Sequence record: DRR723986_11253
Length of the DNA: 45,261 nt
Direction: 5' to 3' (one strand)
Shown: one piece after another, positions 24,342 to 31,700 of the stretch
Layout: each line of letters starts with the position of its first letter
Numbering within the stretch: position 1 is the first letter of the stretch
Made by a program: the position numbers and the translations under genes
The notes under the pieces: generated by a model
The model's database searches: none
Told to the model about the DNA's origin: nothing
What the model saw: only the letters and a program-made list of their open reading frames with translations

Positions 24342-24429
24342 CTAGCATAGTTTCTGACAAAATAAAAATAGAAAGATGTAACTTTTCGTAGTGCTGGTTT
24401 GTTCAACTTACAAACCCAAAATAAGTACT

Positions 24430-25326
24430 ATGAAATATTTAATACTTCTTCTATCAGTCATTTCAATTTCAGGTTATTCTCAACAAGACCCTTACTTCGT
24501 AAGTGATGGATTCACTCCTTTTTGGAATAATCCAGCAGGAACAGCAAGTAAGAATACTTTATCTGCGAATACCATCTACAGAAACCAATGGCCAGCCCTA
24601 AGTTGGAATGTTCAGAATTTGGCATTCAATGTTGAGGCTGATGTGCATATTGGCGGCAAAAGTGATTACAAAAATGGTTTGAATATTCCTTTGGGCATCA
24701 ATGCTATTTTCGAAAAGAACGGCCCTCAACGGATACAAACCATTAATATTCCCATTGCGGTTCCAATTACTCTAGGGAATTCTAAATTAGCTGTAGGTGT
24801 TTCAGCTGGTGTAAAAAATATGAGTGTGAATTGGGCTTACGTGACATTTGGAGATCCTGTTCCCAATCAAGATGGTGCGCGATTTGATTTGAATGCAGGC
24901 TTGTTTTGGTACGGAAAAAGACACTACGTAGGTATTTCAGGAACCAATTTGACAACGCCAAATTTTGGAGGTTTTCAATCTGCAAGACATTTCTATTTGC
25001 AGGCCGGGTATCAATTCAAGGTTGGACAGCATGCAATATACCCTATGTTAAATGCAGCCTATGTTGCCGGATTCCAAACCGTAAGAACAATGGCCTATTT
25101 TCAATTTAAAGAAGATGTTTTCTCCATAGGTGTAGGATATAATTTTAGGTCTTCAGCAGCCTTTGGAGCAACGGTTCGCATCAAGAAATTTAAATTAGCC
25201 TATTATTTTGAGTACTTCCAAAGCACATTAGGCAATGCAAACGGCAATGCGCATGAAGTTCGGTTGAGTTATTCTATTCCTAAAAAATCAACTCCAATTG
25301 TTGCTACTGGAAATCCTCCATTTTAA
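24430..25326 (+). CDS. PorP/SprF family T9SS outer-membrane protein
   Basis: SQQDPY...NPA, YRNQW, HFYLQAGY, HEVRLSY. Start moved from GTG 24391 to ATG 24430, which gives a clean signal peptide. Confidence 0.88.
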   Translation: MKYLILLLSVISISGYSQQDPYFVSDGFTPFWNNPAGTASKNTLSANTIYRNQWPALSWNVQNLAFNVEADVHIGGKSDYKNGLNIPLGINAIFEKNGPQRIQTINIPIAVPITLGNSKLAVGVSAGVKNMSVNWAYVTFGDPVPNQDGARFDLNAGLFWYGKRHYVGISGTNLTTPNFGGFQSARHFYLQAGYQFKVGQHAIYPMLNAAYVAGFQTVRTMAYFQFKEDVFSIGVGYNFRSSAAFGATVRIKKFKLAYYFEYFQSTLGNANGNAHEVRLSYSIPKKSTPIVATGNPPF

Positions 25327-25345
25327 TAATTGCTAATTCGTTAAA

Positions 25346-26230
25346 ATGAGGATTTTTATCACGATTATATTATTATCATCAATGGTTAGTTTTGCTCAGC
25401 AGGACCCGAATTTAAGGTCTGACGGTTTCTCGCCTTTCTGGACGAATCCGGCTTCATATGGAGTTAATAATAATTTAAGCACTCATTTAATAGGGAAACT
25501 TCAGTGGACGGGACTAGAAGGCGCACCAAAACTTTTTATGACCAACACGGAGGCCTATTTACATGTTGGTCCTTCTCAAGATAACCCGAAAGTTAAATTT
25601 GGAACAGGAATAATGTATACGGGATTTTTAATAGGTTTCCAAAAGACTCAAATTTTGAAAATACCGATTAATATAATCACCAATTTGGGAAAATGTCAAC
25701 TTGGGGTAGGTGTAGGATTAGGATTTCTAAGAAACGGTTTCACTTCTAATTGGGTACCACCAATGACCACTAACGATCCGCTTCTCCCAGCTGCAAGTAG
25801 CCAATCAAAATTTGACATGGATGCAGGCATCTTTTTAAATCATAAAAATTTTTACGTAGGAATTTCTAGTACACATTTGTTTCAACCACTCTTTAGCGAA
25901 ATCAATTTTCAATCTGCTAGGCATTACTATTTGCAAGGGGGATGTCGATTTAAAGTTGGAGAACATCACATAGTACCTCAAGTAAATTTAAAGGCTGATG
26001 GAGCAAGTATTTTGTTTTGGAATTTGAACTATTTCCAATTTAAGGAGGATATCTTCTCAATCGGTGCAGGATTTGGTATGGGACGGGAATTGCTGTTGGC
26101 GGCTACCTATAGATTTAAAGCGTTTAAGATTGCTTATAATTTCGATTTAAATTTTGGCCCTTTGTCTAATCAAACGTCAGGATCTCACGAGTTAAGATTG
26201 AGCCTTGTGTTTCCGAAAAGTCTTGACTAA
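25346..26230 (+). CDS. PorP/SprF family T9SS outer-membrane protein (paralog)
   Basis: AQQDP...NPA, QWTGLEGAP, HYYLQGG, SGSHELRL. Confidence 0.9.
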   Translation: MRIFITIILLSSMVSFAQQDPNLRSDGFSPFWTNPASYGVNNNLSTHLIGKLQWTGLEGAPKLFMTNTEAYLHVGPSQDNPKVKFGTGIMYTGFLIGFQKTQILKIPINIITNLGKCQLGVGVGLGFLRNGFTSNWVPPMTTNDPLLPAASSQSKFDMDAGIFLNHKNFYVGISSTHLFQPLFSEINFQSARHYYLQGGCRFKVGEHHIVPQVNLKADGASILFWNLNYFQFKEDIFSIGAGFGMGRELLLAATYRFKAFKIAYNFDLNFGPLSNQTSGSHELRLSLVFPKSLD

Positions 26231-26780: not shown

Positions 26781-27176
26781 TTATCTTTTAACAGCAAATA
26801 TTTCCTGTACACCAACGCCCATTTCTGAAGTGGTATAAGGCAAATAGAATAGTGGAGCTTCATCCACCGGATTGCTGATGTTAATGCATACAGTGGTCAG
26901 TATTTCTTCTTCAGATAGGGCAACTTCTGCCTCACAACAAATTGCATAGGCTTTCATGCGAGATTCAGCTACTTCTTTTTTACAATAATCTTCTAAGCCT
27001 TGTAGAACAGCACCAACCTTAGGCATGTTTTTAGGGTCATATTCTAATTCTAAAGGATGAACTTGACCTGCCATATCAATGTAGGCTGCAAATGGATAGC
27101 ATTCTCCAGTATCTTTTAGTATTTCTGTGGCGTATTCGTCACAATGTTCTAGTAAGTTTTCGTTTATATCACTCAT
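26781..27176 (-). CDS. Hypothetical acidic protein
   Basis: 131-aa ORF with GECYPFAA motif; no family recognised. Confidence 0.8.
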   Translation of the reverse strand: MSDINENLLEHCDEYATEILKDTGECYPFAAYIDMAGQVHPLELEYDPKNMPKVGAVLQGLEDYCKKEVAESRMKAYAICCEAEVALSEEEILTTVCINISNPVDEAPLFYLPYTTSEMGVGVQEIFAVKR

Positions 27177-27183
27177 TTCCTTT

Positions 27184-27232
27184 TAATTCTTTAATACTGT
27201 AATTCAGCTAATACTTTAATTCTATAATTATT
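27184..27232 (+). repeat. Tandem degenerate octamer array (6 units) at the 3' end of the four-helix-bundle gene
   Basis: TAATTCTT TAATACTG TAATTCAGC TAATACTT TAATTCTA TAATTATT. Confidence 0.9.
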
Positions 27233-27575
27233 TGTACGATTTTTTCTTTGATGAACTGATGATGGAAGATAACAATCTGCTTATTTCGTTGATGTCTTTT
27301 AATAATTCTCCTGGGTCTGGATAGTTCTTTGACTCTTTGCAGATTTGAAGCCAATACTCAGTTTCACTCGCCTCTTTTGCAGCTATCACAAGTTTAGAAA
27401 TAAAATCAGCTCTACTGTGCGGATTTTGAGATTCTCTAATGTTTGCACCAACTGAGGTTCCAGATCGGACTAATTGATTAGAAACAGCAAATTTTCTTTC
27501 CTTATCAAGTAATTCACAAAATTCAATGATTTTCACCGCGAATTTGAAGCTTTTATCTACAATTGGATTATTCAT
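27228..27575 (-). CDS. Four helix bundle protein (23S rRNA IVS-protein / TIGR02436-like family)
   Basis: KSFKFAVKII, QLVRSGTSVGANIRE, SRADFISKL, KEASETEYWL. Confidence 0.93.
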   Translation of the reverse strand: MNNPIVDKSFKFAVKIIEFCELLDKERKFAVSNQLVRSGTSVGANIRESQNPHSRADFISKLVIAAKEASETEYWLQICKESKNYPDPGELLKDINEISRLLSSIISSSKKKSYK

Positions 27576-27581
27576 TTTTAT

Positions 27582-27675
27582 TAATGTTCTAATACTTTGT
27601 TTAATGTTTTACTTAATGTTCTAATGCTTTAATACTGTAATTATAGTATTAAGTTATTACAGAATTATAGCATTA
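27582..27675. repeat. Octamer array plus inverted octamer array (imperfect hairpin) 5' of the four-helix-bundle gene
   Basis: TAATGTTC TAATACTT tgtt TAATGTTT tact TAATGTTC TAATGCTT TAATACTG, centre TAATTA (27638-27643), then inverted units TAGTATTA AGTTATTA CAGAATTA TAGCATTA. Confidence 0.9.
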
Positions 27676-27679
27676 ATAT

Positions 27680-27713
27680 CAAATTTAATTAGGAAACCAA
27701 TTTACTTTTCAAA
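27680..27713 (-). promoter_or_regulatory. Promoter of the four-helix-bundle gene
   Basis: TAAATTTG (27687-27680) with TTTG (27713-27710) 22 nt upstream. Confidence 0.6.
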
Positions 27714-27745
27714 CTCAAACGGTCATTGAAATGTACCTCCCAAAA

Positions 27746-29788
27746 TCACAGAATATTGGACTTCGAATTCATTTCTTTCAACTTCTGCTGCATATAAAAC
27801 ATCTCATCTCTTAACCTCGCTGCCTCAATGAAGTCAAGTTTTTTAGCCGCCGCCTCCATATCTTTTTGAGATTTCTTAATGGCTTCTTCTAATTGGCCTT
27901 TAGTCATGTATTGAATCACTGGATCCGCAGCCATGGCCATTTCACTTTCTTCCGGCAGCTGGTAAACAGCCGGGCCGTCACCATCAGCTACTTTAGTTTG
28001 TTTTAAGATGCTCTCTTTCGATTTCTTGATCTGTGTTGGCGTAATGCCATGATCCTTGTTGTATTCTTCTTGTAAGGCCCTTCTCCGGTTTGTCTCGTCA
28101 ATCGTCTTCTGCATTGATTGTGTGATGTTATCGGCATACATTATCACGCGTCCGTTTACATTTCTTGCTGCTCTTCCTACTGTTTGCACTAAGGCTCTTT
28201 CAGATCTCAAAAATCCTTCTTTATCAGCATCAATGATAGCGACTAATGAAACTTCAGGTAAATCCAATCCTTCTCTTAATAAGTTAACTCCAATGAGCAC
28301 ATCAAAATCTCCAAGACGTAATTGTCTCAGGATTTCAACTCGTTCCATGGTATCAACATCCGAATGAATGTATCGGCAAGGAATTGCCAATCGATCCAAA
28401 TATTTTTGCAGTTCTTCGGCCATTCGTTTTGTTAGCGTAGTTACTAACACTCGCTCATCCAATTCTTTGCGTTGATGAATCTCTTCTATTAAATCATCAA
28501 TTTGATTTTTACTTGGCCTGATTTCAATGATTGGGTCAAGTAAACCAGTAGGACGAATCACTTGTTCCACATAAATTCCCTCCGAATTTTCTAATTCGTA
28601 ATCCGCTGGTGTGGCGCTAACATAGAGTGTTTGACCTGTGATGGCTTCAAACTCTTCAAATTTCAACGGTCGATTATCCATAGCGGCAGGCAAACGGAAT
28701 CCGAACTCCACCAAATTTTGTTTTCTTGATCGGTCACCACCATACATTGCTCTCACTTGAGGCAAGGTTACGTGACTTTCATCTATCATGAGAACAAAAT
28801 CATCTGGGAAATAATCGATCAGACAAAAGGGTCTTGAACCTGGAGATCTTTGATCAAAATAGCGTGAGTAATTTTCAATACCCGAGCAATAACCCAGTTC
28901 ACGAATCATTTCCAGATCATAATTTACCCGATCCTCAATACGTTTGGCTTCAATTTCTTTGCCTTCTCCTCTTAAAAATTCTAAATGTTTTCCTAAATCC
29001 AATTCAATTTCACCAATAGCCGCATTTATTGTAGCTTGTGAAGTCACGAAAATGTTTGCTGGAAAAATGTTAATATCCTTAAAATCCTCAATTTTAGAAT
29101 TATTTATAGGATCAAAAGTGTAAATTTCTTCAATTTCATCACCCCAGAAAACAATTCTCAAAGCATAATCCACATAGGCTAGAAAGACATCTATTGTATC
29201 TCCTTTAACCCTAAAATTACCACGTTCAGGTGCTGTATCATTTCTTGAATATAAATTCTCTACTAATCTCAGTAGGAACTTATTACGAGAAATCATCATG
29301 CCTTTTTTAATGCTGACAATACTCTCTTCAAATTCTTTTGGATTTCCAATACCATAAATGCAAGATACAGAAGCAACAATGATTACATCTCGTCTTCCTG
29401 ACAATAAAGAAGATGTCGCGGCTAATCGCAGTTTTTCAATTTCATCATTGATTGACATGTCCTTCTCAATAAAGGTGTCAGTTGTTGGGAGATATGCTTC
29501 TGGCTGATAATAGTCGTAATAAGAAACAAAATACTCGACAGCGTTCTCCGGGAAGAATTGTTTGAATTCGCCATAGAGTTGTGCGGCTAAGGTTTTATTG
29601 TGTGATAAAATCAAAGTTGGGCGTTGAATTTTTTCAATTACATTGGCCATGGTAAATGTTTTTCCACTACCTGTAACACCTAATAATGTTTGGAATTCAG
29701 TTCCATCATTGAACCCTTCAACAATTTGGCGAATGGCTTCTGGTTGATCTCCGGTTGGTTGATAATCTGAATGTAATTTAAATTCCAT
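27746..29788 (-). CDS. uvrB: Excinuclease ABC subunit B
   Basis: PTGDQPEAI, GVTGSGKTFT, YYDYYQPEAY, DESH, GRAARN, C-terminal UVR domain. Confidence 0.98.
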   Translation of the reverse strand: MEFKLHSDYQPTGDQPEAIRQIVEGFNDGTEFQTLLGVTGSGKTFTMANVIEKIQRPTLILSHNKTLAAQLYGEFKQFFPENAVEYFVSYYDYYQPEAYLPTTDTFIEKDMSINDEIEKLRLAATSSLLSGRRDVIIVASVSCIYGIGNPKEFEESIVSIKKGMMISRNKFLLRLVENLYSRNDTAPERGNFRVKGDTIDVFLAYVDYALRIVFWGDEIEEIYTFDPINNSKIEDFKDINIFPANIFVTSQATINAAIGEIELDLGKHLEFLRGEGKEIEAKRIEDRVNYDLEMIRELGYCSGIENYSRYFDQRSPGSRPFCLIDYFPDDFVLMIDESHVTLPQVRAMYGGDRSRKQNLVEFGFRLPAAMDNRPLKFEEFEAITGQTLYVSATPADYELENSEGIYVEQVIRPTGLLDPIIEIRPSKNQIDDLIEEIHQRKELDERVLVTTLTKRMAEELQKYLDRLAIPCRYIHSDVDTMERVEILRQLRLGDFDVLIGVNLLREGLDLPEVSLVAIIDADKEGFLRSERALVQTVGRAARNVNGRVIMYADNITQSMQKTIDETNRRRALQEEYNKDHGITPTQIKKSKESILKQTKVADGDGPAVYQLPEESEMAMAADPVIQYMTKGQLEEAIKKSQKDMEAAAKKLDFIEAARLRDEMFYMQQKLKEMNSKSNIL

Positions 29789-31004: not shown

Positions 31005-31700
31005 TTACAAATCCAAAAAATAATCTAAAGTAGAGAAATTGATATGATCACCAGACCAGAAATTTAATGTATTACCATCTTTATCAATCAAATAAGTAGC
31101 TGGAAAAGTGTTGCCTGCGTTTTGGACAAAGAGTTCTCCATCTATTGTGAATGATTTAAATTCAGTTCCATTATTTTCATTGATAAAAGATTCTCGTGCC
31201 TCATTTTCACCAGGAAAGAAAGCATTCACCTGAATGTTTTGACCACCTTGTATATTCATTCCTAATTTTCTGCTTAAGGCTTTACAATGGGGGCAAGTAG
31301 AAGTGAAAAAACATACGATTTGTTGTTCTCCGTTCAATTCAAAGGCATTATTGGTAGCTTCTTGAAGACTAGCCATAGACAATTCAGGAAGTTGGCTATT
31401 TTGAACATAGCCATAATCTCCTTCATAAATTGGGGCGATAAAAGATATTCCAATTCCAGGCAAAATAGCAATGATAAAGGTGATCCAAAACTTTAGTTTT
31501 CTAGTTTTCTCAAATGCTTTGAACAAGAAATTAAGGCTTACGGCTAAAAAGATAATGACCATTAATCTTAGATAGATTGTTGAGAATACCCAACCCGAAC
31601 CTAATTTAACGACCAATATTTGAAGTAAGTCGTTGAAATAAATTGGAATGAGAAAACAGAGTAGGAGTGCGGCAATAGCGCCTGAAATTCTTGCTAACAT
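31005..31700 (-). CDS. Membrane-anchored thioredoxin-fold protein
   Basis: Three N-terminal TM helices, FFTSTCPHCK, cis-Pro motif TFPATYLID. Confidence 0.8.
   Translation of the reverse strand: MLARISGAIAALLLCFLIPIYFNDLLQILVVKLGSGWVFSTIYLRLMVIIFLAVSLNFLFKAFEKTRKLKFWITFIIAILPGIGISFIAPIYEGDYGYVQNSQLPELSMASLQEATNNAFELNGEQQIVCFFTSTCPHCKALSRKLGMNIQGGQNIQVNAFFPGENEARESFINENNGTEFKSFTIDGELFVQNAGNTFPATYLIDKDGNTLNFWSGDHINFSTLDYFLDL

Follow-up and report, generated by a model that had tools for sequence, protein, structure and literature searches.

The 45,261-nt stretch of sequence record DRR723986_11253 (hereafter the window, meaning the whole stretch at its full length) carries, between uvrB and a 131-aa gene (p131), a small gene for a four-helix-bundle protein of 115 amino acids, enclosed on both sides by arrays of 8-nt repeat units. 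The comparison with related genomes leaves little doubt that this is a cassette typical of the protein family, i.e. a PF05635/TIGR02436 gene lying within mutually complementary short-unit arrays and inserted together with them. The best explanation overall, whose chances of being right appear about even, is an operon cassette of the intervening sequence (IVS) type, with a ring-shaped protein reading its own repeats.

The cassette between uvrB and p131

The domain scan showed the window to be ordinary Bacteroidota chromosome, with type IX secretion genes, tRNA synthetases, uvrB and ispH, and its G+C content is 36%. The genes concerned lie on the minus strand in the order uvrB (27746-29788), a spacer of 170 nt, the 115-aa gene (27228-27575), a spacer of 51 nt and p131 (26781-27176). 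The inserted unit and its borders comprise the following features:

27746..29788, minus strand: uvrB, host gene on the upstream side, with the Pfam domains UvrB_inter, UvrB and Helicase_C; the insertion is bordered on the left by its stop codon.
27676..27745, minus strand: non-repeat leader of the insert, about 70 nt, containing a promoter-like match.
27640..27679, minus strand: canonical upstream arm, five units, ATTAnnnn on the plus strand (ATTA chain; Tandem Repeats Finder, TRF, 27640-27675), complementary to the downstream arm.
27582..27641, minus strand: extra proximal array of seven TAAT marks, lying between the ATG and the upstream arm and sharing the orientation of the downstream arm.
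27228..27575, minus strand: four-helix-bundle protein gene, 115 aa, isoelectric point 9.1 (PF05635, TIGR02436).
27184..27232, minus strand: downstream arm, six units, TAATnnnn on the plus strand (TAAT chain; TRF).
26781..27176, minus strand: p131, the downstream host gene, 131 aa; right insertion border.

On the 3' side of the gene the TAAT marks begin at 27184, 27192, 27200, 27209, 27217 and 27225. These are the six units, the last one holding the stop codon, which had been reported in the original prediction, made from the letters of the window; one of them is of 9 nt. The stop codon (27228-27230) lies inside the first unit of this arm in gene sense, and the last unit abuts the start codon of the next gene. 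The two arrays reported on the 5' side were also present, with other counts: that of the same sense, described as six regular units, has seven marks (27582, 27590, 27602, 27614, 27622, 27630 and 27638) spaced by 8, 12, 12, 8, 8 and 8 nt, and the inverted units, counted as four, are five (ATTA at 27640, 27648, 27656, 27664 and 27672).

In gene sense the cassette thus consists of the leader of about 70 nt, the upstream arm of five units, the seven-unit array of opposite sense, the open reading frame (ORF) and the downstream arm of six units, the 8-nt unit being ATTAnAGn. In the whole window TAAT occurs 412 times and ATTA 358 times, and chains of at least three marks at 8-9 nt spacing are formed solely at 27184-27225 (six marks), at 27614-27638 (four) and, for ATTA, at 27640-27672 (five). 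TRF returned period-8 rows at 27182-27233, 27613-27641 and 27640-27675, and a single other one, at 31494-31510 with 2.1 copies, so that the early statement that no other spacer of the window has this periodicity holds.

The upstream arm is able to pair with either of the other arrays. Positions 27622-27641 of the extra array are 90% complementary over 20 nt to positions 27656-27675 of the upstream arm, leaving a loop of 14 nt, and the inverted repeats I1 and I2 match the upstream arm to the region 27175-27233 around the downstream arm with 79-80% complementarity. A direct repeat of 24 nt with 92% identity (27619-27642 in the extra array and 27181-27204 in the downstream arm) suggests exchange between the arrays. 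A strain in run X3 (95-99% similar) has 9 nt more, i.e. one unit, after 27189 in the downstream arm and 12 nt less at 27601, i.e. one 12-nt unit fewer in the extra array. The arrays are, accordingly, simple tandem repeats, their units being arranged head to tail and differing in number between strains. In a near-identical X3 strain about 67 nt of the leader (27674-27742) are replaced by about 25 other letters, which indicates that the non-repeat leader varies between strains.

The uvrB locus of relatives was surveyed by searching the last 150 aa of uvrB in 41 genomes of the host family and fetching 30 loci. The four-helix-bundle gene follows uvrB in only one of these, that of the nearest genome (G001, with a locus identity of 96%). 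Of the other 29 (L038-L066), eight, namely L038-L041, L043-L045 and L047, have a p131 homolog directly after uvrB; in the 21 others this query detected no p131 adjacent to uvrB. The empty site is carried by two genomes of the same genus, G007 and G003, and by six other genera, and the junction in G007 reads TAA-AGGAATTGAA-ATG. Both the self-contained insert that the gene had been taken for and the empty site expected in close relatives were thus borne out. The inserted unit is of about 570 nt and lies between the uvrB stop codon and the start of p131, which normally begins 10-60 nt after uvrB.

A cassette at this junction was found in the window, in G001 and in G002 only. In G002, of the same genus, it occupies the same place, its protein is 85% identical and its arms are partly decayed. 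The proportion of differing synonymous sites (pS) in this comparison, 0.79, shows saturation and, together with the ratio of nonsynonymous to synonymous differences (pN/pS) of 0.14, indicates that the insertion is old and the protein has been maintained; the cassette has been kept since before the lineages of the window and G002 split. No clear target-site duplication was seen at the junction in comparison with the empty site of G007, the spacer having diverged.

These data bear on the possibility that the repeats belong to the host, as contingency repeats or as a terminator or attenuator tuning uvrB or p131, and that the small gene is incidental. The different number of units in near-identical strains and the hairpin downstream of uvrB would agree with this, as would the unexplained tandem 7-nt repeats before start codons that PMC4679880, in the part consulted, describes in other bacteria. 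However, the relatives without the small gene at the uvrB junction are also without the arrays, which argues against host regulatory repeats; moreover, the arrays accompany the gene family at unrelated junctions, and no terminator-like site was found. Such an origin is considered very improbable.

As to transcription, the leader contains a promoter-like match of the Bacteroidota type, TTG-N22-TAAATTTG, at 27680-27712 on the minus strand. The promoter box attributed to the gene is therefore present as a consensus match, but its value is lessened by the two matches in the window against 1.43 expected by chance and by a leader which, by eye, is unlike that of the G002 ortholog. Read-through transcription from uvrB is equally possible. 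A scan for sigma-70-type signals, which is uninformative for Bacteroidota, gave four promoter-like sites against 4.1 expected and no terminators, and a search of 26900-27900 against Rfam yielded neither rRNA nor any other curated family, its two matches being below threshold and due to chance.

Arrays, period and arm size in the gene family

Four sets of relatives were compared: 30 loci from 41 related genomes (set 1), 80 loci from named genome records across Bacteroidota (set 2), 80 metagenome loci (set 3) and 30 loci from 151 genomes of the phylum, representing a third and more typical subfamily (set 4). The profile for set 2 was built from alignment A2 of the window's own 8-nt clade, since the broad alignment A1 was too diverse, and this sample is therefore biased to that clade; the metagenome sample leaned in the opposite direction.

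In set 1, TRF placed arrays of period 7, 8 or multiples thereof not more than 100 nt from the gene in 23 of the 30 loci. A strong call was defined as a 32-nt stretch, within the 150-nt flanks, with at least 69% self-match at a lag of 5 to 12. Such calls were obtained for 126 of 185 complete-gene cassettes, 125 of them at the 7-8-nt periodicity that had been expected in these flanks (lag 7 in 74, lag 8 in 51; lag 5 in L135), compared with 1 of 205 control stretches 230-380 nt away. Among the 105 cassettes with full flanks, at least three in-phase units were present in both flanks of 74 and in one or both flanks of 101, whereas shuffled flanks gave them in 4 of 210. The density of ATY marks 8 nt apart is 30.4 per kb in the flanks, against 3.5 per kb at a distance of 200-450 nt.

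Five genomes of the genus, which have 3-10 PF05635 matches each, gave 45 matches to a pattern of five ATY marks at 8-nt spacing and one to the reversed pattern. Eight of the 45 lie at five cassettes, the flanks of the 36 PF05635 matches making up about 0.05% of the DNA. Most of the other matches were by eye not tandem arrays, and the one that was fetched (L150) is inside a coding sequence. Other paralogs in G001 have arrays of their own, composed of ATCGAAA repeated about eight times or of ACCAAAC-type units. Arrays thus accompany paralogs as well, and beyond the cassettes they are rare in these five genomes; on both points the original prediction had staked its validity.

Chance low-complexity sequence in AT-rich spacers might be suspected in a window of low G+C content with 412 TAAT. 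It was rejected by the chain, shuffle, control-stretch and reversed-pattern controls given above (no other chains in the window; 4/210; 1/205; 1 against 45), and the probability of such an origin is regarded as negligible.

Two gene-less 8-nt arrays were encountered between convergent ORFs, L147 (G006:C10:63900-65100) and L148 (G006:C2:147300-148600). One of them has units like those of its own genome's cassette (ATTGCATC type) and in the other AAGTCRAT is repeated at least 12 times; they may be what is left of lost cassettes, or arrays that stand by themselves. In L011 (G008:C35) an upstream arm, an array of opposite sense before the ATG, a local hairpin and a weak downstream arm were seen as in the window, and the layout with an extra array may therefore recur beyond it. 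One gene junction appears, by eye, to hold cassettes with differing unit sequences in several genera (L034, L035 and L015 and, judged by their flanks, L100, L108, L109 and L111); either the insertion there is ancient or the site is a preferred one. Another junction that appears, again by eye, to be shared is that of L014, L016 and L017.

A DNA-level mobile element would have arms that act as multi-site terminal inverted repeats and a protein that marks the ends for a host recombination or repair enzyme, by which the cassette is moved or copied. The insertion with empty sites in relatives, the inverted arms, the several PF05635 matches per genome of the genus and the cassettes at many different gene junctions are all compatible with it. 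On the other hand, the 115-aa protein has no catalytic domain, no target-site duplication is readable at the uvrB site, the two junctions that appear to be shared by different genera or families indicate that movement is rare, and the solved precedent for the fold is RNA binding. This explanation is accordingly thought improbable, although a DNA-level role in rare movement is, besides a function of the arms as a mere stem (see below), the main alternative to the preferred one, i.e. an IVS-type cassette with a repeat-reading protein.

The period follows the protein clade. Proteins whose helices 3 and 4 are joined by a C-x(4-6)-Y[PF] turn, the mark of the window's clade, gave strong calls of period 8 in 47 cases and of periods 7 and 5 in one case each, whereas proteins without this turn gave period 7 in 73 cases and period 8 in four; these four exceptions are all inside the 8-nt clade on the tree and have variant turns. 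In the third subfamily the best lag was 7 in 19 and 8 in 6 of the 25 loci analysed, and the proteins of the six 8-nt cassettes have signatures such as 'REIERM' in common, which points to a second period change. Both periods are present in one genome, G001. For the sequences compared it is thus shown that repeat period and arm size go with the lineage of the cassette rather than with the genome that hosts it.

The unit itself is conserved in part. The downstream motif of the 8-nt clade in gene sense is A-T-Y-n-n-C(65%)-A(61%)-A/C(87%), or A-T-Y-n-n-C-A-M across Bacteroidota. The subclade of the window, comprising six proteins, differs in having the unit ATTRnAKn, and its proteins have the changes E53H, H60S and K63V at otherwise conserved residues. 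It is suggestive, as far as a single event in aligned sequences allows, that the changes in unit and residues are linked. A scan of 85 8-nt cassettes for mutual information between columns of the protein alignment and positions of the unit gave high values for many columns against unit position 6. The co-variation of repeat unit and protein clade that had been anticipated was found for the period, while at the level of residues and letters it is confounded by shared ancestry.

The number of in-phase units per arm has its mode at five in both clades: in the 8-nt clade (n = 86) five units occur in 30 downstream and 27 upstream arms, and in the 7-nt clade (n = 66) in 29 and 25. When redundancy is removed at 70% identity, which leaves 93 clusters, five is still a peak (15 and 8 of 36; 12 and 11 of 46). 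The constancy of this count across two periods fits a reader with five subunits and not a pure constraint on stem length.

The downstream arm and the stop codon overlap in 15 of 70 cassettes, and in 29 the arm begins not more than 5 nt away; the distance from the end of the upstream arm to the ATG is at most 10 nt in 30 of 72 and at least 60 nt in 17 (64 nt in the window). At variable unit positions the identity between a cassette's own arms is 0.67, compared with 0.51 in other registers and 0.47 with other cassettes, own arms outscoring those of other cassettes in 78 of 84 cases. The mean duplex energy from arm to arm is -45.7 kcal/mol, against -31.6 kcal/mol for shuffles.

The protein and the proposed mechanism

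The 115-aa ORF is the only one of the PF05635 type in the window, matching this family, that of the 23S rRNA IVS proteins, with 87.6 bits (cut-off 33.8, E 7.6e-25) and TIGR02436 'four helix bundle protein' with 102 bits (cut-off 24). The AlphaFold2 model, built on 80 relatives, has a predicted local distance difference test score (pLDDT) of 96.4 and helices at 4-25, 29-48, 55-81 and 89-114. Its template modelling (TM) score is 0.84-0.86 to 2RLD (BT_0352 of Bacteroides thetaiotaomicron, 48% identity), 0.82 to 2GSC (XCC0516) and, for Avd, the protein of diversity-generating retroelements (DGR), 0.75 (4DWL) and 0.71 (ribonucleoprotein entries such as 8UB7). The fold family and the structural kinship to Avd, both put forward at the outset, thus hold. 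The solved relatives 2RLD and 2GSC each have five chains per entry, and a Xanthomonas protein is termed a homopentamer in the consulted part of PMC4990558; by analogy with the solved relatives the 115-aa protein would also be a pentamer. Over all comparisons pN/pS was 0.04-0.17 with pS of 0.6-0.79, which indicates purifying selection on the gene. No catalytic or enzyme domain was found in the protein by Pfam, NCBIfam and PADLOC scans, nor did it match any of the PADLOC defence models.

The closest known arrangement is the ORF-bearing IVS of 23S rRNA described in PMC4990558, in those sections of it that were available. There a terminal stem of 28 bp is cut by RNase III, two to three tandem heptamers and one degenerate copy precede the ORF, depending on the strain, and the IVS is viewed as selfish and possibly once mobile, with decay of its ORF being reported. 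The likeness consists in the PF05635 gene (termed 'S23p') within complementary stem-forming termini and in short tandem repeats of strain-variable number. In the window the ORF likewise stands within such termini: I1 and I2 are 79-80% complementary, and the minimum free energy (MFE) and centroid folds of the whole-cassette RNA both join the upstream to the downstream arm, giving a closing stem. The leader alone folds into a local hairpin (-18.4 kcal/mol, z -2.2). The window cassette differs in lying between two protein-coding genes and not in a helix of 23S rRNA, in its units of 8 nt, in the extra array that offers an alternative local hairpin, and in the clear purifying selection on its gene, as opposed to the ORF decay in the IVS paper.

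The second precedent is Avd, with which PF05635 is equated in a passage of PMC10053308. In the DGR particle, according to the available part of 10.1101/2023.10.23.563531, all five Avd subunits contact one RNA stem-loop, and flipped-out bases are held in crevices between them. Avd and the 115-aa protein share the four-helix-bundle fold, and Avd is, in the same source, a pentameric barrel making repeated identical contacts to structured RNA; they differ in sequence (14% identity) and in target, which for Avd is an 11-bp stem-loop and here would be a periodic array. A periodic single mismatch of the arms mimicking the flipped-out bases of the Avd RNA was looked for and rejected, mismatches being spread over all variable positions. 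Among ORFs of at least 300 aa within about 5 kb (PorP/SprF, UvrB, LytB and peptidase M20) there was no match to a reverse-transcriptase family, 17 of the 33 window ORFs of at least 150 aa having been covered by one domain scan; the repeat search spanned 27100-27800, and template and variable repeats were not searched for.

From these precedents the following mechanism may be drawn up. The protein would form a ring of five subunits, as its solved relatives appear to, and the ring would read the units of its own arms, each subunit taking approximately one unit and each five-unit arm accommodating one ring. A pentamer reading units is favoured because of the conserved motif, the period fixed by lineage, the mode of five units and the Avd precedent; the earlier suggestion of about one octamer per subunit receives indirect support from the five-unit arms of both clades and the five chains of the solved relatives. 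That the protein reads its own repeats is, taken by itself and judged from sequence comparison, a possibility that we would put somewhat below even. The likeliest target would be the RNA of the transcript, in which the upstream arm could pair either with the extra array, giving a local hairpin before the ATG, or with the downstream arm, giving a stem that closes off the whole ORF as in the intervening sequences of 23S rRNA. Binding would set the amount of protein and possibly also the cutting by RNase III of the cassette RNA away from the uvrB and p131 messages. An RNA target with autoregulation, processing or both is favoured because of the Avd precedent and the IVS literature.

A competing explanation is a pure insulator of the IVS kind, in which the arms are nothing but an RNase III-cut stem that removes the cassette RNA, the protein is unrelated cargo and the tandem structure is a by-product of slippage. 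The RNase III-cut stem of the IVS (PMC4990558, as far as consulted) is a precedent for it, and the arm complementarity beyond chance, the closing stem in the MFE fold and the whole-unit insertions and deletions between strains also speak in its favour. A stem, however, requires neither tandem units nor a fixed period, a conserved unit motif or a fixed count, all four of which are seen; the mode of five units in both clades, corresponding to about 35 and 40 nt, conserves the count and not the length; pairing is poor at the variable positions, and the protein is strongly conserved. An insulator without a reading protein is therefore regarded as rather unlikely.

Several results weigh against the proposed reading of the repeats by the protein. 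Imperfect pairing of the arms, with 25-38% mismatch at each variable unit position, AU-rich stems in the window and a z of only -1.17 for the whole-cassette fold would make a weak RNase III substrate, and a single metatranscriptome run gave contigs over uvrB only (27831 onward) and none over the cassette, being silent on its expression. The ortholog in G002 has been kept while its arms decayed in part, the gene-less arrays L147 and L148 exist, and after de-replication a second peak appears at two units (decayed or irregular arms). The mutual information scan is dominated by clade signatures, with too few independent switches, and the 7-nt tree clusters alike. Unit types such as ATTTTCAA and ATTAGCAC are mixed within arrays and recur across distant protein subclades, which argues against a fine residue-to-base code. 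A two-residue gap in alignment A1, tried as a 'ruler' for 8 nt, was discarded, as the 7-nt members L021, L036 and L031 share it and the second 8-nt group has no length change. Finally, the period could be kept by slippage of whole units and its link with the clade could be plain co-inheritance, only two period changes being involved. On balance, the original interpretation of a protein-plus-repeat unit is upheld in part, as regards the insert, the arrays of the family and of the paralogs, and the fold with its kinship to Avd; recognition of the array by the protein and mobility of the unit are putative.

It is tempting to speculate, albeit as a tentative proposal that we consider more doubtful than probable, that PF05635 proteins in general are ring readers of periodic nucleic acid. 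Each of the five subunits would read one unit of 7 or 8 nt, a five-unit arm would be the footprint of one ring, the protein lineage would fix the period, and the gene with its two arms would constitute a self-regulating, occasionally moving cassette of which the rRNA IVS is only the best-known habitat. If this is true, it would explain part of the unexplained 7-8-nt tandem repeats in bacterial spacers.

Related repeats, significance and further features of the locus

The trp RNA-binding attenuation protein (TRAP) is a ring that binds one short repeat per subunit in a leader RNA and thereby switches between alternative RNA structures. Its likeness to the system proposed here is an analogy of mechanism only, i.e. 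a ring of identical subunits on evenly spaced repeats; the fold is unrelated, TRAP has 11 subunits and triplet repeats, and there is neither a cassette nor self-regulation through flanking arrays.

Heptamer repeats are also known in cyanobacteria as short tandemly repeated repetitive (STRR) sequences. Long simple sequence repeats with units of 5-11 nt were treated by Mrazek (2007), as described in PMC4679880. From the portions of these reports that were seen, the long simple sequence repeats and the heptamers of cyanobacteria or Beggiatoa resemble the present arrays in their head-to-tail 7-8-nt units in spacers, in copy change by slippage and in having no agreed function. They differ in that the reports treat them as a genome-wide mutational or regulatory feature, while here the repeats are tied to one gene family, occur as inverted pairs and have a preferred size. 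The available text of PMC4679880 on unexplained heptamers makes no mention of four helix, S23, intervening sequence or Avd. Within the full-text literature covered, which leaves out subscription journals, no paper was found on flanking 7-8-nt arrays as a property of the PF05635 family or on such cassettes in protein-coding operons.

The window copy is therefore best described as a member of a cassette type that varies on the rRNA IVS, its particular features being the AU-rich ATTAnAGn unit, the extra array with its alternative hairpin and the clean empty site in the same genus. PF05635/TIGR02436 proteins are common in the genus, and two crystal structures of the family are titled or named as being of unknown function. 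The family is now tied to a candidate, countable nucleic-acid partner, namely its own arrays with a clade-fixed period and a preferred number of five units, which can be tested directly by binding. The link joins rRNA intervening sequences, free-standing Avd-like proteins and unexplained heptamer and octamer tandem repeats. For annotation it means that short repeats beside these genes at operon junctions belong to the insert and should not be read as regulatory sequence of the host.

Some further features of the window were noted. Searches of Pfam and NCBIfam gave no family match for p131, which is a conserved direct downstream partner of uvrB (spacer 10-60 nt) in eight relatives' loci from seven genera of the host family and is perhaps a uvrB-linked gene that has yet to be characterised. 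At 5-157, within the open-ended ORF 1-555 on the minus strand, there are tandem repeats of period 15/30 (GCTTCTTCAGCAGCAGGA-like), probably a low-complexity repetitive protein segment. Two tandem paralogs of the PorP/SprF family of type IX secretion membrane proteins lie at 24391-26230 on the plus strand (E 1e-32 and 3e-34).

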